Shown here one piece after another: positions 3,682 through 56,531 of a stretch of 64,000 bases of DNA. The notes under the pieces were generated by a model. The model was not told where the DNA came from. It did no database searches and worked only from the letters and a program-made list of their open reading frames with translations. The position numbers and the translations under genes were made by a program. Origin of the DNA: an uncultured Bacillales bacterium (lineage in GTDB: Bacteria; Bacillota_I; Bacilli_A; RF39; UBA660); assembly GCA_949948745.1 (NCBI GenBank), contig CATLHA010000005.1, positions 12,740 to 76,739 of the forward strand. Direction: 5' to 3'. Each line of letters begins with the position of its first letter. Position 1 is the first letter of the stretch.

Positions 3682-5313
3682 ATGAAAAAACACAATATTT
3701 TAAAGGTTGTACTCTTAACTATTTTAGTTGTGGTAATATGTACTTGGATTATACCTAGTGCACAATTTCAAGCAACTTTAACTGTGGGAGAAAGACTACA
3801 AGCTGGATTCTTTGATTTCTTCAGCTATCCAATGGTTGCATTACAATACTTTGGAAACGTTCTATTATATATACTAATTTGTGGTATGTTTTATGGTGTT
3901 GCTTACCGTATTCCAGCATATAAGGAATTAGTTCAAAAAATAGTAGATGGGTTCAAAGGAATGGAAGTTATTTTCCTTTCAGTTGTAATCATATTACTTT
4001 CAGTGTTAGTTTCAGTTACAGGTATCGTATTACCAATTATCTTTGTATTCCCATTTGTTATAGATGTTGTACTTAAGATGGGATATAACAGATTAACTGC
4101 TGCTACAGTTACTGTAGGTTCAGTTGTTGCTGGTATTGCAGGGACTACACTTGGAGTTGCTACTACTCAATATATGAATCAGGTTTTAGCTATTGGTTCA
4201 TTTGATGAGATGCTTTCTAAGATTGTAATTTTAGTAATCTTTATCATTCTTTTAATTGCACAAGTTGTGTTATATAGTAAGAAGACAAAAAATACTACTA
4301 TTCAAGCTGAAAAGGTAGAAGTAAAAACTGAAAAGGTTGAAGAAAAGAAAGTAGAAGTATCTAATAGGAAGGAAGAAAAAGTATCTGTTAAGAAAGATAC
4401 AAAAGTTTCTAAGAAGGAGTCATCTAGTCCTAAAAAGGGACAAAAGAAATCTTCAAGCAAAAATTCTAAACAGGAGACTAAGAAGTCTACTGGAAAAAGA
4501 GGTAGACCACCTAAGACTTCTGCTGCTATGGCAAAAGATAGTTCTGAAACATTAGTTATTTCAACTAAGAATAAGAAAAAAGCTAATATTTGGCCACTTG
4601 CAATTATTTTTGATTTAGTAATCATTATTATAGCACTTGGTATGTTTGACTGGGCTGGTTTATTTGAAATCACTTGGTTTGAAGAAGCAACAAAAGCGGT
4701 AAAAGAATACAAGGTACTTGGATTCCCAATTTTTGGTACTATTTTAGGGCAATTAAGTGCATTTGGAAAATGGAATGTAGCTATTGAAGTTCCAGTAGTT
4801 GTTATGATTGCTACTTGTGTTCTTGCATTAGTATATCGTGTAAAATTTGAGGATTTTATTGATGGAATTTGTGAAGGTGTTAGAAGATCATTTGGACCAG
4901 GAGTTGTAATGCTATTAACATATGTCGTATTAGTAGTTGTTACTTATCATCCATTCCAATTATTCATTACCAAATTCTTGTTAAATATTACTTCAGGATT
5001 CAATGTTGTAACAATGATGGTTGCTGCATTACTTGCATCAGTATTTAATGTAGATTTAATCTATGTTTCTCAAAATGTATTACCTTATATTGAAACTGTT
5101 ATTACTAATACTGAATTATATCCATTAATCGGGGTTATTTTCCAATCAATTTATGGATTAGTATGTTTAGTAGCACCAACAAGTTTTATTTTAATGGGTA
5201 CATTATGTTATTTAAATGTTTCTTACAAACAATGGTTAAAGCATATTTGGAAATTATTCCTAGCATTACTTGCTGTTTTAGCAGTAGTATTCTTAATCAT
5301 TTTAGCTTTATAG
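3682..5313 (+). CDS. polytopic membrane protein (YfcC/AbgT-like transporter family?) with a ~110-aa Lys-rich cytoplasmic insert
   Basis: 543 aa, at least 10 predicted transmembrane segments; N-terminal CTWIIPSAQF resembles YfcC-family starts; the insert KVEVKTEKVEEKK...GKRGRPPK carries an AT-hook-like RGRP core. Confidence 0.45.
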   Translation: MKKHNILKVVLLTILVVVICTWIIPSAQFQATLTVGERLQAGFFDFFSYPMVALQYFGNVLLYILICGMFYGVAYRIPAYKELVQKIVDGFKGMEVIFLSVVIILLSVLVSVTGIVLPIIFVFPFVIDVVLKMGYNRLTAATVTVGSVVAGIAGTTLGVATTQYMNQVLAIGSFDEMLSKIVILVIFIILLIAQVVLYSKKTKNTTIQAEKVEVKTEKVEEKKVEVSNRKEEKVSVKKDTKVSKKESSSPKKGQKKSSSKNSKQETKKSTGKRGRPPKTSAAMAKDSSETLVISTKNKKKANIWPLAIIFDLVIIIIALGMFDWAGLFEITWFEEATKAVKEYKVLGFPIFGTILGQLSAFGKWNVAIEVPVVVMIATCVLALVYRVKFEDFIDGICEGVRRSFGPGVVMLLTYVVLVVVTYHPFQLFITKFLLNITSGFNVVTMMVAALLASVFNVDLIYVSQNVLPYIETVITNTELYPLIGVIFQSIYGLVCLVAPTSFILMGTLCYLNVSYKQWLKHIWKLFLALLAVLAVVFLIILAL

Positions 5314-5435
5314 GAAATTAATTATTTAAGAGGACTATTCTTATGAGTAGTCTTTTTTCTGTTTTTTCTTTTTTAATCGTTTAAAAAAATTCTAAATATA
5401 GCATAATAATCATAGAATGGAATAGGAGGATTATT

Positions 5436-7736
5436 ATGTTTTCTAAATTTAGTGAAGAAGCCCAGAAAATTTTACTTGGTGCAAAAAGGGAGATGCAAAA
5501 ATTAAAGCATCCTTATGTGAGTAGTGAACATTTGGTTTTATCTATTTTAAGAAATAATAATGATTTAGCAAATCGATTAAAGGAATTTCAAATTACATAT
5601 GATTCATTTTATCAACAAATTGTAGAACAAATAGGAATAGGAAAAGAGGAGAATCATTGGTTTTTATTTACACCTCTTTTAAAGAGAGTAATAGAAACCT
5701 CTATCTTACTTTCGAGGGACATGAATAGTAATGAAGTAACTAGTGATCAATTATTTTTAGCTGTTTTAGAAGAAGGTGAGGGAGTAGCAATTCGAATTCT
5801 AAAACAAATGGATGTTGATATCAATGATTTACAAGAGTATTTTTCTAATAGAATCGTAGTGAAAAAGAAAAAGGGAGGAAAAAAATTGCTTGTAGAAGAA
5901 TTTGGAATTGATTTAACTAAAGAAGCTTCTCTTAATAAATTAGATCCTGTTGTTGGTAGAGAACAAGAAATAGTTCGATTAATGGAAATATTATGTAGAA
6001 GAAACAAAAATAACCCATTGTTAATTGGAGATGCTGGAGTAGGAAAAACAGCTTTGGTTGAAGAACTTGCTAGATTGATTGTTCAAAATAAAGTTCCAGA
6101 TAAACTTAAAAATAAAAGAATTATTTCTGTATCTATTGCATCCTTAGTTTCAGGAACGAAATATCGTGGGGAATTTGAAGAACGTGTTACCAAGATGATT
6201 AAAGAGATTGAATCCAATAATGATGTTTTACTTTTTATTGATGAAATACATACTTTGATGGGTGCTGGCGGAGCAGAGGGTGCGATAGATGCTGCTAATA
6301 TATTTAAACCTGCTCTAGCACGTGGAAAAATTCGTTTAATAGGGGCAACTACTACGGACGAATATAAGCAAACGATAGAAAAAGATCGTGCGATGGACAG
6401 AAGATTTCAAACAGTTTTTGTATATGAACCGAATTCTTCAGAAGTTTATAATATTTTAGAAAAACTTCGACCAATTTACGAATCATTTCACAATGTCAAA
6501 ATTAATGATTCTGAATTAAAGCTTATTATTAAATTATCTGATAAATATATTTATGATAGAAAACAACCAGATAAGGCGATTGATATTTTAGATGAAGTTT
6601 GTTCTAAGGTTTCTTTAATTCGTCATAAGAGTTCTACTAAACTTGATTTATATCAATCACAATTAAACTTGGTAAAAGAGGAAAAAAATAAATACATTAT
6701 GAAGCAAGATTTTGAAAATGCAACAAAGCTTAAATATCAAGAAAAGGATTTATTAACTAAAATTAATGAGATTGAATTAAAACATAAGGCTAAGAAAAAC
6801 GTTCATGTTATTCATGAAAATGATATTGCGAATGTTATTTCTGAGAAAACTAAGATACCAGTTTATGAAATCAATAGTAGTTGTTCAAAATATATGGAAA
6901 AATTAGAAAAAGGACTTCATAAAAAAATTATAGGTCAAGAAGAAGCAATTAATGAGCTTGTGAAAGCAACAAAAAGAATTAAATTAGGATATAAGGATAG
7001 TGATAAACCATATTCTTATTTATTTGTAGGTCCAACTGGTGTAGGAAAAACAAAACTTGCTTTAGAATATGCACATTTTCTATTTGGGGAAGGCAAACTA
7101 ATTCGATTTGATATGAGTGAGTATAGAGATAGTTCTTCTATTAATAAAATTATTGGATCTTCTCCTGGATATGTTGGATATGATGATGGTAAAAATAAAC
7201 TAGAAGAAATTAGAAAAAGTCCACATTCTATTATTTTACTTGATGAAATAGAAAAGGCACATCCGTCTGTTTTAAATTTATTTTTGCAAATATTAGATGA
7301 GGGTAAAATTACTGATTCTAAGGGAAATATGGTTCATTTTAATCATCATATCATTATCATGACTTCTAATTTAGGCTTTCATAATGAGTCTGTTGGCTTT
7401 ATCGAAGAAGTTAGTAAGAATGATAGTAAGTTAAAAGAATTTTTATCATTAGAGTTATTAAATCGTATACAAAAAACTATTTATTTTAGAAAACTAGATG
7501 AAAATAATATTCGATCAATTATTAAAATTAAATTAGATTATGTCAAAAAGAAATTTAGAGAGAGAAATATTAAGGTTCATATTAGTGAAGGTATTATTGA
7601 TAAAATGATTCAAAATACAAGATATTTGGAATTTGGCGCTAGGAAAATTGATCAGGTTATCGAAGATGAAATTGATGACTATGTAATTGATCATATATTA
7701 AGTGGAAAAACGGAAATTTATGTAAACAATAATTAA
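5436..7736 (+). CDS. clpC: Clp ATPase, ClpC-like (two AAA+ modules)
   Basis: 766 aa; Clp_N repeats at the N-terminus; Walker A GDAGVGKTA and second GPTGVGKT; the ClpB-type middle domain is short. Confidence 0.85.
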   Translation: MFSKFSEEAQKILLGAKREMQKLKHPYVSSEHLVLSILRNNNDLANRLKEFQITYDSFYQQIVEQIGIGKEENHWFLFTPLLKRVIETSILLSRDMNSNEVTSDQLFLAVLEEGEGVAIRILKQMDVDINDLQEYFSNRIVVKKKKGGKKLLVEEFGIDLTKEASLNKLDPVVGREQEIVRLMEILCRRNKNNPLLIGDAGVGKTALVEELARLIVQNKVPDKLKNKRIISVSIASLVSGTKYRGEFEERVTKMIKEIESNNDVLLFIDEIHTLMGAGGAEGAIDAANIFKPALARGKIRLIGATTTDEYKQTIEKDRAMDRRFQTVFVYEPNSSEVYNILEKLRPIYESFHNVKINDSELKLIIKLSDKYIYDRKQPDKAIDILDEVCSKVSLIRHKSSTKLDLYQSQLNLVKEEKNKYIMKQDFENATKLKYQEKDLLTKINEIELKHKAKKNVHVIHENDIANVISEKTKIPVYEINSSCSKYMEKLEKGLHKKIIGQEEAINELVKATKRIKLGYKDSDKPYSYLFVGPTGVGKTKLALEYAHFLFGEGKLIRFDMSEYRDSSSINKIIGSSPGYVGYDDGKNKLEEIRKSPHSIILLDEIEKAHPSVLNLFLQILDEGKITDSKGNMVHFNHHIIIMTSNLGFHNESVGFIEEVSKNDSKLKEFLSLELLNRIQKTIYFRKLDENNIRSIIKIKLDYVKKKFRERNIKVHISEGIIDKMIQNTRYLEFGARKIDQVIEDEIDDYVIDHILSGKTEIYVNNN

Positions 7737-49246: not shown

Positions 49247-49903
49247 ATGCATAAAGAGTTAGTACAGTATATTGAAAGTAATATTTATCCATTATATTCT
49301 AGAAATGATTGGGCGCACCAATTGTGGCATATTGAGGATGTCACTAAAAAAAGTTTGAAATTAGCGAAAGGCTATTCTGTTAATTTAGATATGGTTTATG
49401 TAATTGCGTCTTTTCATGATTTAGGATGTTTTATTAGCCGAGATAATCATGAAGAAATTTCTGCTCATTTGATGGAACAAGATCATTTTATTCAAAATTA
49501 TTTTAGTGATGAAGATATTCAAATTATGAAAGAAGCAATTATTGATCACAGAGGTTCTTTAGAATATGAACCAAGAAGTATTTATGGAAAGATAATTTCT
49601 TCTGCAGATCGATTTGTTACCATTGAAGGAATTATGAGAAGTACTCATAGTTATACTTTAGAGTTTCTTCCTGAAGTTGACTGGGATCAAATGGTTGAAA
49701 CTAGTTATAGTTATATTAAGAAAAAATATGGAAAAAATGGATATGCAAAAAGTTATATTCCTAATCCAGATTATGATTCTTTTTTAGAAGAAGTAGAAAA
49801 ATATTTAAATGATAGAGAATTATTTTCTAAAAAATTACTTGAAGTTGATGAACTTTTAAGAAAGGAATATCCTGTAAAGGTAGGATTCCCTGGAAGAAAT
49901 TAG
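49247..49903 (+). CDS. HD-domain phosphohydrolase
   Basis: 218 aa; H...HD...H...D metal-binding pattern (WHIEDV..., ASFHDLGCF, IDHRGS, SSADRF). Confidence 0.7.
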   Translation: MHKELVQYIESNIYPLYSRNDWAHQLWHIEDVTKKSLKLAKGYSVNLDMVYVIASFHDLGCFISRDNHEEISAHLMEQDHFIQNYFSDEDIQIMKEAIIDHRGSLEYEPRSIYGKIISSADRFVTIEGIMRSTHSYTLEFLPEVDWDQMVETSYSYIKKKYGKNGYAKSYIPNPDYDSFLEEVEKYLNDRELFSKKLLEVDELLRKEYPVKVGFPGRN

Positions 49904-49948: not shown

Positions 49949-50301
49949 TGGGGCTGTCATGGTTTCGACAGGATTAGTGGAACAAGAGTGGCAAGTAGAT
50001 GGCAATCTTAAAATGCGTCAGTTAAATATAACTGGAAACAATTATCAAATGGCTTTCGCTGCTTAATAAAGCATATAGCGAAGCGCTTCTTTAAAAGTCA
50101 TACCTGTGGACTTTTTTAGAGGCTCGATTTTTACAGGTTATATTACTATGACGTCTATAGTAGTGATGAATTTTATAGACTGGCTATATCAACATTCGTT
50201 AACTAGTTTTTGATATAGTGAGATTGTTTAGTTAACTAAACTTGTAGATATTCTTGAGGATCTAGTTTTGGACAGGAGTTCGATTCTCCTCAGCTCCACC
50301 A
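49949..50301 (+). ncRNA. ssrA: tmRNA (SsrA), 353 nt; encoded tag (A)GNNYQMAFAA
   Basis: 5' GGGGCUG...UUCGACAGG acceptor/T-arm pairing with 3' GGACAGGAGUUCGAUUCUCCUCAGCUCCACCA; the resume context UUAAAUAUAACU-GGA matches B. subtilis ssrA as recalled; tag ORF gga...gct gct taa taa at 50034-50066. Confidence 0.9.
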
Positions 50302-50377
50302 ATTTGATTTTTAATTCGATGTAATCGAATTTGATATAAATGGAATTTATTTTTAAAATGTATTAGGAGATTAAATA

Positions 50378-51166
50378 ATGCAGTCTATACTAGAACAAAA
50401 TTTAAAAAATATTGATATGATAAATTTTGGAAGTTCTGATAAAATTGTCTACAAAAGTGCACTTCTTGAAATTAATAGATTAATAATTGATTTAATGACA
50501 AAGTATGGGATTTCATATAATTATCAATATTTAAATAATAGAACTAAATCGCTAAAATTATATAATGGAATTTTATTAGAGGAAAACGAAGAAAATAATA
50601 TAATTCAAGTATGTCAATATAATCAACTAGGTGAGAAATTGACTCATGAAGATGAGATAATAAATTTAATTCATGAATATTTGCATATAGTATCTTTTAG
50701 AAATTATAAAGATGAGCAAGATATAGGAAATCTATATTATGGTTTTGATGAATTCTGTACGGAATTTATAACATCTATCATTTGTATGAAATTAGGTTTA
50801 AATTTTGAGATTCATTATAGGCAACGTTCAGCTGGATATATTGATAATAATGATTATGAGTTTATGAGAAACCTAAGTAAAACTGTGGGACTAAATGCAT
50901 TATTAGAAATATATTTTACTGGGGATAAAAATGTATTAGAACAGTCTTTAGGTATAGTTCTATTAATGAATATGAATAAATATATTGATTATTATGAGGA
51001 AATATATGATTCATTTAACAAACCGAGAAAAGTTGTTAATGAAATTTTAGACAAGCCTATTTTTGAACCGCAAAGACGGATATTAAATATTTTTATCAAC
51101 AGAATAAATACAAATATTAATAATCTGTCTAATAACCAGGAAAATTTTGGAGGTATTAAAAAATAA
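50378..51166 (+). CDS. hypothetical HExxH protein (possible ImmA/IrrE-like or other zincin)
   Basis: 262 aa; single HEYLH motif (IINLIHEYLHIV); Asn/Ile-rich. Confidence 0.4.
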   Translation: MQSILEQNLKNIDMINFGSSDKIVYKSALLEINRLIIDLMTKYGISYNYQYLNNRTKSLKLYNGILLEENEENNIIQVCQYNQLGEKLTHEDEIINLIHEYLHIVSFRNYKDEQDIGNLYYGFDEFCTEFITSIICMKLGLNFEIHYRQRSAGYIDNNDYEFMRNLSKTVGLNALLEIYFTGDKNVLEQSLGIVLLMNMNKYIDYYEEIYDSFNKPRKVVNEILDKPIFEPQRRILNIFINRINTNINNLSNNQENFGGIKK

Positions 51167-51228
51167 GTCTTATAATTTTATAACTAATACAAAACCAAAA
51201 ATAAATACGATAGTTTATTTTTAGATTA

Positions 51229-51241
51229 CTCAGGTCCACCA
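51229..51241 (+). repeat. imperfect direct repeat of the tmRNA 3' terminus (candidate att remnant)
   Basis: ctcagGtccacca versus ssrA 50289-50301 ctcagCtccacca (12/13); partial flank similarity extends this to about 15/17. Confidence 0.35.
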
Positions 51242-51252
51242 GATTGATAGGA

Positions 51253-51284
51253 AACTCGAACTTTTATGTTTCGAGTTTTATTAT
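51253..51284 (+). terminator. rho-independent terminator
   Basis: aactcgaa / ttcgagtt 8-bp stem then ttttattat; could be the original ssrA terminator displaced by the insertion. Confidence 0.55.
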
Positions 51285-51368
51285 GCTTAAAATTATGTTA
51301 GAATCGTATTAAGCGTTTGATTAATAATTAAATTTTAGAATAACCTTTATATTTAATGGGAGGTACTT

Positions 51369-51689
51369 ATGGAAAAAACAATTACACAGATTCAAAAAGA
51401 TGTTGATGATTGGGCACAGCAATTCGAAAAACCTTATTTTAGTCCACTTTCCATGGTTGCTACAATGACTGAGGAATGTGGAGAAGTAGCTAGAGTGATG
51501 AATCATTTATATGGTGATAAAAAGAAGAAAGATGGAGAAACTATGATAGACTTAGAAGAGGAGCTTGGAGATTTATTATTTACTATTATTTGTATCGCAA
51601 ATGATCAGAACATTTCTTTAGCGAAAGCACATGAACGTAAATTAGAAAAGATTTATGGTAGAGATAATTATCGTTTTAATAGAAAATAA
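51369..51689 (+). CDS. MazG-like nucleoside triphosphate pyrophosphohydrolase (small all-alpha NTP-PPase)
   Basis: 106 aa; EECGEVARVMNH and EEELGDLLFTII motifs (EExxE...D metal-binding pattern). Confidence 0.7.
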   Translation: MEKTITQIQKDVDDWAQQFEKPYFSPLSMVATMTEECGEVARVMNHLYGDKKKKDGETMIDLEEELGDLLFTIICIANDQNISLAKAHERKLEKIYGRDNYRFNRK

Positions 51690-51735
51690 TCATTTTATAT
51701 GATAGATTAGTAGGGATTTGTGGAGGAATTAGCAA

Positions 51736-52335
51736 ATGGAGAAATTAAAAGATAGGCTTGATTATTTAAATGGACTAATCGATAAGTATCAGAAACAACT
51801 AAAAAAGAAAGAACAAAGACCTTCTGGGTGCTATTCATGGGAAACAGAGGATGAATCGATAGTACAATTGAGAGAAAAAATATATCAATTATTTGATGAG
51901 GTATCTAAAATAGAAAAAACTTTAGTAATAGCGGATAAGGAGCCTATTATTTGTAGTGAACGAATAGATTTATATAAAACCGATCAAAATCCTAAGGGAT
52001 ATTATATAGTGTGTTTATCTGGTACTAAGACTATTATAGGTGAGGTTGGATGTAATAACGAAAATAATAATATTCATTATGTAATTGATCAAGAATATCA
52101 AAATAATGGATATGGATTTCAGGCAGTAGTTACTATGTTAAATTATTTAGTTTTATCTGGTATTGAAAATATTGAGATTCTAATAAAAAAAGAAAATGCC
52201 ATATCAATCAAAATGGCTGAGAAACTTAAAAATATATTTCCAAACTTTAGTGAGAATATAATGGATGATTACCTTATGTACCATTTTTGTTTAAGGAAGA
52301 AAAAGAACAAGGAAGATAATATTAGTTATAAATAG
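51736..52335 (+). CDS. GNAT-family N-acetyltransferase with N-terminal coiled-coil
   Basis: 199 aa; acetyl-CoA-binding motif QEYQNNGYGFQAV (Q/R-x-x-G-x-G/A). Confidence 0.55.
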   Translation: MEKLKDRLDYLNGLIDKYQKQLKKKEQRPSGCYSWETEDESIVQLREKIYQLFDEVSKIEKTLVIADKEPIICSERIDLYKTDQNPKGYYIVCLSGTKTIIGEVGCNNENNNIHYVIDQEYQNNGYGFQAVVTMLNYLVLSGIENIEILIKKENAISIKMAEKLKNIFPNFSENIMDDYLMYHFCLRKKKNKEDNISYK

Positions 52336-52412
52336 GTGATATTATTATTTATCATCTTTTTTTCATTTAGAAACACAATTGTAAATCATTGTTTGATATA
52401 ATGAGATAGGAT

Positions 52413-54206
52413 GTGATAATTGTGATTAGAGATAATATAATTATAATACGAGATTTTTTTAAATTAGTTAAGGGAAATAAAAAATGGATATTTCTTTTGT
52501 TTTTTGGTTCTATAATGGCACATTTATCTAGTTTACTAATACCAATTTTTACTTCTAATATTATATATGAAGTCACAAATCATAATGTTGATGCGGCATA
52601 TATAAATATTGGGATGTTGGCATTGGTCTATATAGTATATAATTTGTTTTGGTATTTGAATTATGTTTCTTATTCTCATAATTTTAAATATAGTTATAAA
52701 AATTTAAGAGAAAAAGTTGTAGATAAAGTCTTTACTTATGATACTGATTTTTCAGATAAAATATCTAAAGGTACAATTTTAAACACCGTGAATACAGATA
52801 TTTCAAATTTATCTGAGATGATAGATAACGTTTGTGAAATTTTAGTTGTTTTTGTAAAAATTATAGTTATGATTATTGTCTTTTTAAAAACGGATATATA
52901 TATCGGGGTACTAGTTTTGTTGTTGGAATATTTATATTTAAAATCATTTGACTATTGTAATATTAAAAGTACAAAATATTTGAGAGGTCAACAGAAATAT
53001 AGAGATAAATTAACAGATAATTTGTCTCAGATTTTAAATGGATTAAGTGAGATAAAAGTTTTTAATATTTATGATAAAATTAAAAATAATTTTTATATTA
53101 TTGCTAATAAATGGGCAGAACAGTATATGTTAAAAAGAAGATATGTTAATATTAGAGCTAGCTTGTTGCCGTTTATTATCCATTTTGGAAAAATAATTTT
53201 ATATTTTATACTAACTTCATTTGTACTTAGTGGAAAATATGAAATAAATCTTTTAGTTTTACTAATTACTTATTTTGAAAATATTATGACTAATACTAAA
53301 GAATTGATGGGATTTTCAAGGCAAATTAGGGAATGGTCTATTTCTATTAAAAGAATTAATACTATTTTAAATTATTCAAGCAAGCAACAAATCACTTTTG
53401 GTATGAATGAAAATGATTATATAGATGGTTTGGTAGAATTTAAGGACGTAAGTTTTTGTTACAAGACTAAAAATAGAGGTAATATTAGAAATATAAGTTT
53501 TACTGCAGAACCTAATGAAATAACTGCTTTGGTTGGACATAGTGGTAGTGGAAAAACAACTATTATTAATTTAATACTTAGAAAATATAAACTAGATAGT
53601 GGAAAAATCTTAATTGATAATGAAAATATATATGATTATTCTAAAAGTATTTATGCTACAAACGTAGTTGGGGTAAACCAATCTCCATTTATATTTAATA
53701 TGAGTATTAGAAAAAATTTAAGTTTAATTGATTCAAATATTGATAATCAAATTGAAGCTTGTAAAAGAGTTGGAATTCATGACTACATTATGAGTTTGCC
53801 TAAGGGATATCATACTATTTTAACTGAAAATGCTACTAATTTTTCAGGAGGACAAAGACAATTGTTGGCAATTGCTAGAACATTATTATCAAAAGCCGAA
53901 ATATTAATATTTGATGAAGTAACAAGTTCACTTGATACATTGCTAGTAGAAAAAATTAAGGAAATTTTTGAAAATTTAAAATTAGATCATACAATTATTT
54001 TAATAACTCATAAAAAAGATGTAATGAAAATCGCAGATAAAATTATTGTTTTAAATAAGGGAATGATAGTTGGTCAAGGTAATCATAAGGAACTTATGAA
54101 AAGCAATGAATATTATATAGACTTACAAACAAATAATTATTCTAGTTCTCATAAAAAGACATTTGAAAATATTATTGTGGAAGATACTGTTTTAGAAAGA
54201 AAATAA
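52413..54206 (+). CDS. ABC exporter, fused permease + ATPase, bacteriocin/peptide-exporter-like but without an N-terminal peptidase domain
   Basis: 597 aa; 6 transmembrane segments; Walker A GHSGSGKTT, signature FSGGQRQLL, Walker B ILIFDEVTS; GTG start uncertain (52413 or 52422). Confidence 0.85.
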   Translation: MIIVIRDNIIIIRDFFKLVKGNKKWIFLLFFGSIMAHLSSLLIPIFTSNIIYEVTNHNVDAAYINIGMLALVYIVYNLFWYLNYVSYSHNFKYSYKNLREKVVDKVFTYDTDFSDKISKGTILNTVNTDISNLSEMIDNVCEILVVFVKIIVMIIVFLKTDIYIGVLVLLLEYLYLKSFDYCNIKSTKYLRGQQKYRDKLTDNLSQILNGLSEIKVFNIYDKIKNNFYIIANKWAEQYMLKRRYVNIRASLLPFIIHFGKIILYFILTSFVLSGKYEINLLVLLITYFENIMTNTKELMGFSRQIREWSISIKRINTILNYSSKQQITFGMNENDYIDGLVEFKDVSFCYKTKNRGNIRNISFTAEPNEITALVGHSGSGKTTIINLILRKYKLDSGKILIDNENIYDYSKSIYATNVVGVNQSPFIFNMSIRKNLSLIDSNIDNQIEACKRVGIHDYIMSLPKGYHTILTENATNFSGGQRQLLAIARTLLSKAEILIFDEVTSSLDTLLVEKIKEIFENLKLDHTIILITHKKDVMKIADKIIVLNKGMIVGQGNHKELMKSNEYYIDLQTNNYSSSHKKTFENIIVEDTVLERK

Positions 54207-54297
54207 TATATGTTATATTAGATTTAAGGAATTTTTCTTTTCTGAAAGAGAAAATTTTTATAAAATTGGGTAAATATTATTTAAGGAGTAATTAATT

Positions 54298-55077
54298 ATG
54301 TGGGGTGCTATTATAGGAGACTTGGCTGGTTCTATATATGAATTCGGTCAAATAAAGAAAGTATCTAATATTTTGATTGATGAAGTTATTATGGAAGATA
54401 GCTTTTATAGTGATGATACAATCTTGACAGTTTCTATTTTAGATGCCTTACTAAATGGTGGAGATTATGGATTTTTTCTAAAAAAATATGGTTGCCTTTA
54501 TCAAGACTATAAACCTGATTTTGAGCCATACTTTCAAAAAACTTTTTCTCCTAGCTTTTTAAAATGGGCAAGTGGAGATTTTGTAGGAGTTAGTACTGGG
54601 AACGGGGCAATGATGAGAATTTCTTCCATTGGGTATCTCTTTGATACTGTTGCAGATATAGAAAAAAATGCATATTTGGCTACCGTTCCTTCTCATAACT
54701 CTAAAGAAGCTATCCAATGTGCGACTTTAGTGGCACTGATTATTTACTTTGCTAGGAAGAATTATTCAAAGGAAGAAATAATTAAAAATTTAGATTTAAG
54801 ATATGCATATCATCCATTTCAGAAGTTTAATAGTACTTGTTATGATACAATAGATAATTGTCTTTATGCACTTTTTAGTTCTAATAGTTTTGAAGATTCT
54901 ATAAGAAAAGTTATTTCTTATGGAGGAGATACTGATACAAATGCTTGTATTGTTGGGTCTATGGCAGAAGCATTTTATGGGGTTCCTTTAGAACTAATAG
55001 AAGCTTGTAGAAATAAAATACCAGAGGAATTTACTAAAATTATAGATTTAGGCTATTCTAAAATGAAGAGATTTTAG
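54298..55077 (+). CDS. ADP-ribosylglycohydrolase family protein (ARH/DraG-like)
   Basis: 259 aa; N-terminal GAIIGDLAGS and C-terminal GGDTDTNACIVGSMAEAFYG, the two metal-binding signature blocks of the ARH fold. Confidence 0.8.
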   Translation: MWGAIIGDLAGSIYEFGQIKKVSNILIDEVIMEDSFYSDDTILTVSILDALLNGGDYGFFLKKYGCLYQDYKPDFEPYFQKTFSPSFLKWASGDFVGVSTGNGAMMRISSIGYLFDTVADIEKNAYLATVPSHNSKEAIQCATLVALIIYFARKNYSKEEIIKNLDLRYAYHPFQKFNSTCYDTIDNCLYALFSSNSFEDSIRKVISYGGDTDTNACIVGSMAEAFYGVPLELIEACRNKIPEEFTKIIDLGYSKMKRF

Positions 55078-55110
55078 ATTTATATATAATAAGAAAAGGA
55101 GAAACATATT

Positions 55111-55914
55111 ATGAAGTTAACAGTATTAGAAGATAATAATACTTATATTGATATGTATTATTTAGGAGAACCAGCAGTTAGCTATTATATCGAGGATGGA
55201 AACAATAGAATTTTGTTTGATGTTGGATATTCAGATGCGTTTATGATAAATGCTAAAAAGATAGGAATTGATTTAGATAAAGTGAATAAGCTAGTAATAT
55301 CTCATGGACACGATGACCATACTGGTGGATTGAAATATTTCTTTAATAAAAAAAGAAATATTGAATTGATTTCTCATCCAGAAAGTTTTAACTATAAAGA
55401 AGATGCTACTGGACTTTTTATTGGGAGTTCTTTAACAAAAGAACAATTATATGAAGTTAGTAATTTAAAATTATCTAAGGAGCCTATTCAAATAAGTGAT
55501 AATATTATTTATTTAGGAGAGATTCCTATTACTAATGATTTTGAACCCCGTTATGCGATTGGTAAGAGTATTGTTGATGATAAAAAGGTCGAAGATATGA
55601 TTGAAGAAGATTCTGCAATTGTTTATAAGAGTGATCAAGGGTTATTTGTTATTACTGGATGTTCTCATAGTGGAATTTGTAATATTATTGAGTATGCTAA
55701 AAAGGTTTGTCATGAGGAAAGAATCTGCGGTGTGATTGGTGGATTTCATCTATTTGAAGTGAATAATCGATTAGAAAAAACGATTGAATATTTCAAGAAA
55801 AATGATATTAAATTGTTGTATCCATGTCATTGTGTTTCATTAAAAGCTAAAATAGAAATGGGAAAACAATTAGATATACGTGAAGTTGGAGTGGGACTTG
55901 AAATTAATTTATAA
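55111..55914 (+). CDS. MBL-fold metallo-hydrolase
   Basis: 267 aa; HGHDDHTGG (HxHxDH) plus downstream His/Asp/Cys ligands. Confidence 0.75.
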   Translation: MKLTVLEDNNTYIDMYYLGEPAVSYYIEDGNNRILFDVGYSDAFMINAKKIGIDLDKVNKLVISHGHDDHTGGLKYFFNKKRNIELISHPESFNYKEDATGLFIGSSLTKEQLYEVSNLKLSKEPIQISDNIIYLGEIPITNDFEPRYAIGKSIVDDKKVEDMIEEDSAIVYKSDQGLFVITGCSHSGICNIIEYAKKVCHEERICGVIGGFHLFEVNNRLEKTIEYFKKNDIKLLYPCHCVSLKAKIEMGKQLDIREVGVGLEINL

Positions 55915-55952
55915 GGAGAATTTGATAGACTTACAATGATAGGAGAATTGAT

Positions 55953-56531
55953 ATGAGTGATGATATTTTGTACCATATTCATAGAACTGGTGATATGGAT
56001 GATTTATGGTATGTTGGAAATGAAATTATTGTAGATGATAATTTTCAAAGTCAATTTTATGTTCAATTATTGAAACAGGAGTTTCCTTTAGTTCAAAGAT
56101 ATGGAGATTATGATATAGATGATTTGATATCTACGATGGAAGAGATGAAATCTTTAAATTTTATGAAATCTAATGTTGATTCTTTATTTCATAAATTACT
56201 TTATTGTTGTTATTCTTTAAGAAGAGAAAGAGCATTAGAAGAAGGAAGAAAAATATTTTCTTCTAATTGTCCTTCTAGAATGCATTCTATATTTTTAACA
56301 GGTATGGATGATTTATCCTATTGGGAAAGTTATGTTGGTAATAGGTCTTTTCAAAGATTCTCTTTGAATTGTTTTGGCAATTTATTTGTCAGTTCTGATT
56401 CTTTTTTTCCACAATATACATTATCATTTGATGATCAAGTAGAACAATCTAGAGTCTATTGGATTCCAGAGATGGAAAAAGCAAAACATAAGGAAATATT
56501 ATTTCAGGGTAAAGCTCAAATCATAGCATAA
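55953..56531 (+). CDS. hypothetical 192-aa protein; weak resemblance to DarT-type (DUF4433) ADP-ribosyltransferases
   Basis: N-terminal ILYHIHRTGD recalls the DarT YHITH NAD-binding block; C-terminal KHKEILFQ recalls the AEFLV catalytic-Glu block; the similarity is from memory and not statistically tested. Confidence 0.3.
   Translation: MSDDILYHIHRTGDMDDLWYVGNEIIVDDNFQSQFYVQLLKQEFPLVQRYGDYDIDDLISTMEEMKSLNFMKSNVDSLFHKLLYCCYSLRRERALEEGRKIFSSNCPSRMHSIFLTGMDDLSYWESYVGNRSFQRFSLNCFGNLFVSSDSFFPQYTLSFDDQVEQSRVYWIPEMEKAKHKEILFQGKAQIIA

Follow-up and report, generated by a model that had tools for sequence, protein, structure and literature searches.

In the chromosome of an uncultured Bacillales bacterium, ssrA, the gene for transfer-messenger RNA (tmRNA), is followed immediately by a 940-bp unit that carries a single gene and ends in a near-copy of the ssrA terminus. 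The locus lies in a 64-kb stretch of DNA (contig CATLHA010000005.1; the whole stretch is called the window below) that is core chromosome, with rpoB, rpoC, ribosomal protein, EF-Tu and EF-G genes. The one-piece ssrA, which appears to be the integration target, occupies 49950–50301 of the plus strand (ARAGORN; Rfam RF00023, 167 bits, E 2e-67); the genes for RNase R, SmpB and an HD-domain protein lie upstream of it. Its terminal 13-mer, CTCAGCTCCACCA (50289–50301), recurs in the same orientation as CTCAGGTCCACCA at 51229–51241, with 12 of 13 positions identical, and this is the sole other match to the 13-mer in the 64 kb at one mismatch or fewer. The ungapped similarity extends beyond the terminal CCA, 50289–50308 (CTCAGCTCCACCAATTTGAT) agreeing with 51229–51248 (CTCAGGTCCACCAGATTGAT) at 17 of 20 positions; on base composition, 7e-6 such matches are expected by chance per kb, or 5e-4 per 64 kb on one strand. 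The repeat of the ssrA terminus is real and far above chance. On its 3′ side stands a hairpin (51252–51279; −11.7 kcal/mol, z = −3.3, none of 200 shuffles as good) followed by UUUUAUUAU, which a simple terminator scan missed because the loop is too long for that scan. Both the repeat and the terminator behind it had been pointed out in a sequence-only reading of the window, and both stand. The further copies of the ssrA end that this reading suggested seeking downstream were not found by a window scan between 51.3 and 64 kb.

The unit, called the cassette below (50302–51241, plus strand), is absent from strains of the same species with an empty site and measures 0.94 to 0.99 kb in other species; all features described here lie on the plus strand. 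Its left end (50302–50340) is a trailer-like segment that begins ATTTGA, includes a hairpin (50313–50331) and replaces the native ssrA trailer; in the window this hairpin folds only weakly (z = −0.5), and the variant carried by locus L014 has a stronger one (z = −2.3; L numbers designate the loci compared). At 50331–50369 lie a promoter-like TTGATA-17-TAAAAT (50331–50359), a candidate by consensus match only that agrees at 10 of 12 consensus positions, and a putative ribosome-binding site, AGGAG (50365–50369). The cargo gene (50378–51166) codes for a 262-aa zincin-fold protein with HEYLH at residues 99–103 and invariant D124 and E125. It is the single open reading frame (ORF) of the interval, no recombinase gene being found among the ORFs there, just as the sequence-only reading had it: one HExxH gene and no integrase. 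An AT-rich hairpin followed by a T run (51197–51222; −4.9 kcal/mol, z = −1.5, weak) is the probable terminator of the cargo gene, and an equivalent hairpin followed by TTTTT occurs in other cassette copies. The right end (51229–51241) is the pseudo-ssrA terminus CTCAGGTCCACCA, which is conserved among copies and would be the element-borne half of an attachment site; it shares with ssrA the latter's last seven nucleotides (nt), TCCACCA (50295–50301). Beyond it lie the displaced ssrA trailer and terminator hairpin (51242–51290), the chromosomal side of the site, which adjoin the ssrA CCA in empty strains. Terminal inverted repeats were looked for in the cassette and none was found. In the 64-kb window as a whole, where a downstream integrase had been suggested as a target for searching, no recombinase was detected by tblastn with the recombinases of relatives, nor was there one among the best 25 of the 80 Pfam families matched.

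Occupied and empty ssrA sites

Contigs of the same species, defined as those encoding an identical SmpB and 99–99.9% identical to the window in their flanks, present the site in three states. In the empty state (L159, L161, L164, and L166), ssrA is followed directly by its trailer and by MazG, which lies exactly 940 bp closer. In the cassette state (L160, L165, and L167), the arrangement is that of the window. In the third state (L163, contig Ga0081180_1000014; L168, contig Ga0081460_1006093), the CCA is followed at once by an element whose first genes encode a large serine recombinase of 511 aa and two small resolvases. Empty, cassette and recombinase-element alleles thus coexist in one species, which makes the tmRNA gene a live site of exchange. 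The insertion or deletion relative to the empty allele is exactly 50302–51241, and over the 283 nt before the ssrA CCA the empty strains do not differ from the window. Empty sites in related genomes, the check that the sequence-only reading had asked for, therefore exist, and its proposal of an insertion at the ssrA 3′ end is upheld, ssrA being followed directly by the native terminator in these strains and in many related species. Its suspicion that the distal attachment site might lie beyond the window, with the accessory genes from 51.3 kb onward as part of the element, has to be given up: the MazG, GNAT and ABC genes are also present in the empty strains, so that this region lies outside the element and 51241 is the true distal boundary.

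To the right of the cassette, 51242–51344 is dense in differences from the empty allele. Seven differences, at +1, +9, +10, +70, +77, +89, and +103, fall within these 103 nt and are common to all four empty strains; the remaining 2833 nt hold 4 to 7, that is, about one per 400–700 nt over 2.8 kb. The ssrA trailer appears to be exchange-prone, a local hotspot of differences.

Related units are rare and scattered. The cargo protein family is tiny, with 13 clusters among 5.8 billion proteins and, by exhaustive profile search, 16 representatives among 1.84 billion; a scan of metagenomes with the profile of the cargo protein gave at least one locus, and no relative of the protein was found in viral contigs. 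All contigs encoding an identical protein share the context of the window, and homologs at 53–81% identity are found in different contexts. The cassette unit lies 3′ of ssrA in four other, distant species (L014, L018, L148, and L149) and 3′ of tRNA-Thr(CGT) in a fifth (L011–L013). An alignment of the copies (A1), read together with their flanks, shows homology starting immediately after the CCA of the RNA gene and, in every copy with a located right end (all but L018), stopping about 75 nt past the stop codon at (C/G)TCAGGTCCACCA, beyond which the copies are unrelated. L011, L014, and L144 keep this right end, whereas L149 has the variant GGTCCATCA and L148 and L015 have GGTCCATTA; the units are 940–990 bp long. 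The sequence GGTCCACCA is, moreover, the genuine ssrA terminus of L075, L078, L085, L089, L092, and L093. Since the G variant and about 75 nt upstream of it are conserved across copies, the supposedly “degenerate” terminus belongs to an element, as its conserved right end, and is not the decaying duplicate of an attachment core that the sequence-only reading had taken it for. Left ends come in two types, one (A-type) in the window and the other (B-type) in L011 and L014, and both resemble sequence found directly 3′ of ssrA elsewhere: the match is 18 of 18 nt in L062, and L071, L092, L093, and L122 begin ATTTGA.

The right end of the window cassette joined to its left end equals, over 22 of 22 nt, the terminus and trailer of a real tmRNA gene in L122 (13747–14069, minus strand; IMGVR_UViG_3300006127_000042). 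This 36-kb contig, classed as viral and belonging to the same sample series, carries a tmRNA gene with an unusual T-loop (GGGGTGCAACTCCCC), a tag ending in ALAAA and an end, CTCAGGTCCACCA followed by ATTTGATTT, that is identical to the joined ends of the cassette; a 488-aa FAD-type ORF comes after it. L122 had been considered as the attP of an autonomous element and was rejected, the “viral” contig having a true tmRNA gene there; it is useful solely for equating the end-to-end junction of the cassette with a real ssrA end and trailer. In scans of viral contigs for the cassette junction and left ends, GGTCCACCATGTGGTTAT, TTGAGGTTAAAAGTCGCAC, and GTAGTATTAAACAAACTTTT gave nothing. All viral matches to TGTGGTTATAAAACAAAC and 43 of the 45 to CAGGTCCACCAWTTTGA were dismissed as chance occurrences inside unrelated phage genes; the other two CAGGTCCACCAWTTTGA matches are 3′ ends of tRNA or tmRNA genes (tDNAs), in L122 and in L143 of a high-GC organism.

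A scan for SmpB, with one genome per species, gave 80 related species (“Bacilli bacterium,” Candidatus Scybalousia, CAG:710 and similar), none of whose representatives has the cassette gene beside ssrA. The sequence right of the window cassette (GATTGATAGGAAACTCGAAC...) stands directly 3′ of the ssrA CCA in L019, L022, L034, L044, L049, L051, and others; the native trailer of the window species begins AATTGATACC. Compared with L014, the window shows far less divergence in the cassette gene (dS 0.34, 79% amino-acid identity) than in smpB (dS 1.41, 69%) or the RNase R gene (dS 1.38, 57%), and the cassette DNA is 82% identical as against 72% for the tmRNA; the tmRNAs of the four ssrA hosts measured are 67–75% identical to one another. 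Because its divergence is far below that of adjacent host genes, the cassette is judged to have moved horizontally between distantly related gut Bacilli. A dN/dS of 0.2–0.4 in all pairs indicates that the cargo gene is kept under purifying selection. Family members at 63% identity or less (L016, L017, and L150, with P0015) have no cassette ends and lie in ordinary chromosomal contexts.

Some copies are irregular. In L144 (1552–2385) and L145, an internal deletion has removed the N-terminal third of the gene; the left flank of L144 ends in CAACACCA, no RNA gene is called there, and another element may precede the copy in a tandem array. In L146 (1075–1318) and L147, the left end is truncated (it starts TTTTATTCGATG) and joined to non-tDNA sequence without a CCA, and the right flank matches an L029-type trailer, which may reflect a rearrangement. 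A supposed homology of the 3′ untranslated region (UTR) to the tmRNA 3′ region (AACTAAA...GTTTTTGAC..., a form that would lack the T-arm) was rejected, nhmmer scoring it no better than shuffled sequence when the last 13 nt were masked and a profile of about 60 tmRNA 3′ ends was used. The sequence shared after ssrA by L024 and L058, considered as a possible second element, amounts to only about 55 nt.

Serine-recombinase elements at the same sites

The recombinase found in the third state of the site has Resolvase, Recombinase and Zn_ribbon_recom domains over its 511 aa and is encoded on the reverse strand, abutting ssrA. The observed part of the element lies at 5432–8129 in L163 and at 5432–6622 in L168, and its small resolvases measure 167 and 202 aa. 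Being antisense, the recombinase ORF overlaps ssrA by 73 nt at the junction, and the related ORF of L062 crosses by about 50 nt. When the ORFs 3′ of ssrA were screened in the 80 relatives, genes for large serine recombinases, or fragments of them, turned up near ssrA in L022, L023, L029, L031, L037, L042, L044, and L062, and such elements also follow tRNA-Thr in L065 and tRNA-Leu, itself downstream of ssrA, in L082. In L022, L023, L029, L042, L065, and L082, the order is CCA, a hairpin “trailer,” an ORF of about 97 aa and the recombinase; L062, L163, and L168 differ, the recombinase being antisense and abutting ssrA. Trailer types cross from one RNA gene to another, the trailer of L042 (ssrA) resembling that of L065 (tRNA-Thr) and that of L029 (ssrA) resembling that of L082 (tRNA-Leu). 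In L082, a tyrosine-integrase remnant (5315–5527) is followed by tRNA-Leu and then by the serine-recombinase element, which suggests successive insertions at one ssrA.

Among viral contigs from IMG/VR (L152–L157), the trailer GATTGATAGGAAACTCGAAC and the small ORF are preceded by a short pseudo 3′ end, and ARAGORN calls no real RNA gene at these junctions. The pseudo 3′ end reads ATTCTCCTCACTTGCTCCA in L153, whose recombinase is 61% identical to that of L022, and ATTCTCCACCA in L157; L154 and L155 have a fragment of a tRNA T-arm and acceptor stem, and in L156 the same phage end is joined to a single-hairpin trailer like that of the window, the form expected of attR. Because a pseudo 3′ end followed by a trailer hairpin stands at their junctions, the recombinase elements appear to share the design proposed for the cassette. 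The two kinds of element also meet directly: L014 has a tandem of ssrA, cassette and the remnant of an L023-type recombinase element, with homology over about 750 nt although the hosts are distant, and the B-type left end of the L011 and L014 cassettes equals the left end of the L062 recombinase element at 18 of 18 nt. The L062 recombinase is 55% identical to that in the species of the window. The L062 trailer had been considered “native” and was reinterpreted, as the recombinase gene abuts it; the case is ambiguous, L149 having the same trailer type followed by an ordinary gene.

Origin and movement of the cassette

These data point with reasonable confidence to 50302–51241 being a non-autonomous, single-gene integrative cassette, similar to a cis-mobilizable element (CIME), that is mobilized in trans, most likely by large serine recombinases. 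We infer movement in trans because the cassette encodes no recombinase; the leading candidates for helpers are the large serine recombinases of larger elements, which in this clade occupy the same CCA-end sites, those of ssrA, tRNA-Thr and tRNA-Leu. The insertion has moved the native ssrA trailer and terminator away from the gene by 940 bp and given it a replacement trailer. Joining of the right and left ends would give an attP-like site resembling a real ssrA end and its trailer, the predicted junction of the circular form being TTAGATTACTCAGGTCCACCA joined to ATTTGATTTTTAATTCGATG, with CTCAGGTCCACCA joined to ATTTGATTTTT. As in the model of cis-mobilizable elements and accretion, the cassette would at times stand beside an autonomous element that supplies the recombinase. 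Among close relatives, it probably spreads by homologous recombination of its flanks as well: on the simplest reading, the lineage of the window acquired both the cassette and about 100 nt of a different trailer allele from a related donor in this way. A single reciprocal crossover cannot produce the foreign tract right of the cassette, because attL follows the host sequence only to about +1.

The main competitor would dispense with any site-specific step: the unit would have arisen once beside ssrA and spread by homologous or homology-facilitated illegitimate recombination. The ssrA 3′ region is highly conserved, its last 30 nt or so being nearly identical across species, and is proposed as the anchor; the cassette encodes no recombinase, and the seven differences in the first 103 nt to its right look like the trace of such an exchange. 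However, in distant species the right boundary falls exactly at GGTCCACCA with unrelated sequence beyond, whereas illegitimate joints would scatter; the junction is just as precise after the CCA of tRNA-Thr and after CAACACCA in L144, and the left-end variants match the ends of site-specific elements. This explanation is accordingly held unlikely for the cassette as a whole, and between distant species the sharp boundary at the CCA, as read from the aligned copies, still requires a site-specific step. Less probable still is the remnant proposed in the sequence-only reading, in which a larger island or prophage in ssrA has lost its integrase and most of its genes and its att-core copy is degenerating. 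The direct repeat of the ssrA end with its displaced terminator, the lack of an integrase on board and the use of the same site by recombinase elements in the same species all suit it, and the cassette may well have originated long ago by deletion of such an element. But identical boundaries recur in at least six unrelated contexts, and independent decay would not repeat a unit; the G variant and the 75-nt UTR are conserved and the gene is under purifying selection; presence or absence within the species is an exact 940-bp affair; and the cassette has diverged far less than its hosts. As a description of the locus in the window, the remnant is already largely refuted.

A non-autonomous transposon, either like a miniature inverted-repeat transposable element (MITE) or an IS200/IS605-type palindrome-associated transposable element (PATE), would insert 3′ of a CACCA target. 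The insertions do lie always directly 3′ of CACCA, the element itself ends in CACCA, formally like the cleavage sites of IS200/IS605, and there are subterminal hairpins at both ends. Against this, the lack of terminal inverted repeats, the absence of a transposase from every fetched context (precomputed Pfam marks) and the restriction of insertions to RNA-gene ends, not the many other CACCA sites, combine with a left hairpin that differs wholly between its two variants and from the right hairpin, leaving no common recognition structure; a transposon is highly improbable. A chance repeat beside an ordinary resident gene has only the shortness of the repeat in its favor. The sequence-only reading had itself named a 13-mer of background frequency or poor conservation as fatal to its case; chance would give 7e-6 such matches per kb, the copies share a conserved end and empty sites exist, so that chance, of negligible probability, is already refuted.

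Several points nevertheless weigh against a cassette mobilized in trans by serine recombinases. Neither a circular form nor excision or integration has been observed, and mobilization in trans is our inference. The cluster of differences from +1 to +103 means that the last acquisition step at this locus was probably homologous recombination, not site-specific insertion. No recombinase element was found with an A-type left end like that of the window, the only match being B-type (L062), and the loci fetched stop short of the right ends of the recombinase elements, the ends that would be compared with the pseudo-terminus of the cassette. The left flanks of L015, L144, and L146 are not RNA genes, and tandem arrays explain them only provisionally. 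Finally, tyrosine integrases are the usual users of tDNA sites, one of them abuts ssrA in L080, and the helper could be such an enzyme. The L080 integrase (4889–6016, minus strand; Arm-DNA-bind_4, SAM_3 and Phage_integrase) starts 65 nt after ssrA.

A broader proposal, which we put forward tentatively and hold to be somewhat doubtful, is that in uncultured gut Bacilli the CCA ends of ssrA and of some tRNA genes serve large serine recombinases as an integron-like “platform.” Whole elements and one-gene cassettes would be swapped at one site and exchanged between species, each unit bringing a replacement terminator and having at its end a brief mimic of a tDNA terminus. If true, serine integrases would here clearly target tDNAs in nature, with the smallest trans-mobilized cargo units so far seen at a tmRNA gene.

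Cargo protein and relation to known elements

The sequence-only reading had likened the cargo protein to ImmA/IrrE. None of 14 members of the family matches Peptidase_M78 (PF06114) at E up to 1, and the adjacent cognate helix-turn-helix repressor gene that is a trait of ImmA/IrrE is missing from the single-ORF cassette. The best viral structural match (BFVD) is IrrE-like and not significant (E 0.057, TM about 0.3). Membership in ImmA/IrrE is not supported. What remains is a sub-threshold match to MPTase-PolyVal (PF18818; 16.6 bits against a gathering cut-off of 27.5), weak matches to which are seen in 13 of the 14 members; nothing was found in PHROGs, PADLOC, NCBIfam or the sequences of the PDB. 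Since H99, E100, H103, D124, and E125 are invariant across the family, the protein fits the gluzincin pattern HExxH...E, with HExxH, a downstream Glu ligand and a thermolysin-like fold as in gluzincin-type zinc metallopeptidases. It is probably a cytoplasmic zinc metallopeptidase, and one may guess that it acts on a protein of the host or of a rival element. MPTase-PolyVal, or the ArdC C-terminal domain (PF18818), and ImmA/IrrE (PF06114) likewise present an HExxH zincin fold on mobile elements. An orphan zincin family that is selected while moving between species is presumably useful to the host or to the element.

An integron gene cassette consists of one ORF and one recombination site without a recombinase, inserts at a fixed platform site and relies on an enzyme encoded elsewhere. 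The present cassette resembles it in its single ORF, its lack of a recombinase and its fixed site, and differs in that there is no attC-like structure and no IntI, that it has a promoter-like site of its own and that the platform is the end of an RNA gene. CIMEs and site-specific accretion have reportedly been described for the ICESt1/ICESt3 family of Streptococcus thermophilus. Described CIMEs, several kb in length, use tyrosine integrases and sit at a protein-coding gene, at its 3′ end. The likeness here lies in a unit that is flanked by putative attachment sites, devoid of recombination, conjugation, mobilization or transfer genes, and, in L014, in tandem with the remnant of an element of the kind that would supply the recombinase, its own mobilization being presumed only. 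The term cis-mobilizable element is in use (PMC6323972, PMC5704250).

Like the tDNA islands defined by the Islander signature, the cassette is associated with an intact tDNA and a displaced 3′ fragment in direct orientation, by which the gene end is restored; ssrA is the target most heavily used by such islands, and the cassette, too, lies at ssrA. A repeat marks its far boundary and the site is unoccupied in relatives, as in tDNA islands, but no integrase is encoded inside it. The displaced “fragment,” too, is unusual: it is just 13 nt and is the element's copy, not that of the host, and the enzymes associated with it are serine recombinases, which surveys call unreported or unproven at tDNAs. 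In genome-wide surveys, serine integrases at tRNA and tmRNA genes are described as rare and as lacking experimental proof (PMC4383910, PMC7192596). One survey placed 14 of its 297 serine-integrase elements at such genes and cautioned that “experimental proof will be required” (PMC7192596).

A close precedent is the ssrA genomic islands of Dehalococcoides (McMurdie et al., 2011; PMC3146451), which carry on the reverse strand by attL a CcrB-like serine recombinase, DsiB, and a small one, and which occur in tandem, with a 20-bp repeat of the ssrA end at their borders. Some of these islands lack the recombinase module and were proposed by the authors to be cis-mobilizable elements (PMC3146451). 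The layout of L163 and L168 is the same as that of the DsiB/DsiA module, the window itself being without a recombinase. In Dehalococcoides, however, insertion takes place in the T-loop of ssrA with a 20-bp repeat, whereas the junction of the cassette comes after the terminal CCA with identity over TCCACCA and its flank; the islands are multi-gene, whereas the cassette has one gene in 0.94 kb and a low-GC gut Bacilli host; and unlike the islands, the design described here also uses tRNA-Thr and tRNA-Leu ends. Islands at ssrA, recombinase-less elements and one family of serine recombinases at ssrA were thus already known. What is new is the reduction to one gene and 0.94 kb, the exact position at the CCA end with a built-in replacement trailer and pseudo-terminus, the spread over several uncultured gut Bacilli, and the link to serine recombinases for which the ends of tRNA-Thr and tRNA-Leu are sites as well. 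The cassette is a compact natural cargo unit, stripped to one gene and attachment sequences. The finding points to serine integrases recognizing the CCA ends of tRNA and tmRNA genes, which, with short conserved natural targets in every bacterium, would interest genome engineering.

The genes beyond the displaced trailer (51369–56531) code for MazG, a GNAT acetyltransferase, an ABC transporter, an ADP-ribosylglycohydrolase, a metallo-beta-lactamase-fold protein with a weak Apyc1-like mark and a DUF2441 protein. This set adjoins ssrA in none of the 80 related species and is present in the same-species empty strains; another contig with identical SmpB (L162) is arranged differently, with PNP_UDP_1, MazG, ADP_ribosyl_GH and metallo-beta-lactamase (MBL) genes. 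The region is a variable neighborhood, separate from the cassette. The tag that ARAGORN predicts for the tmRNA of the window is unusually long (GNLKMRQLNITGNNYQMAFAA), related tmRNAs having GNRNELAFA or GNRNQLAFA and that of L149 20 residues; the resume codon may have been mis-set, or tag length may really vary in the clade. The HD-domain gene (49247–49903), between smpB and ssrA, occurs among relatives only in L019, L026, L027, and L029 and, in part, in L043.

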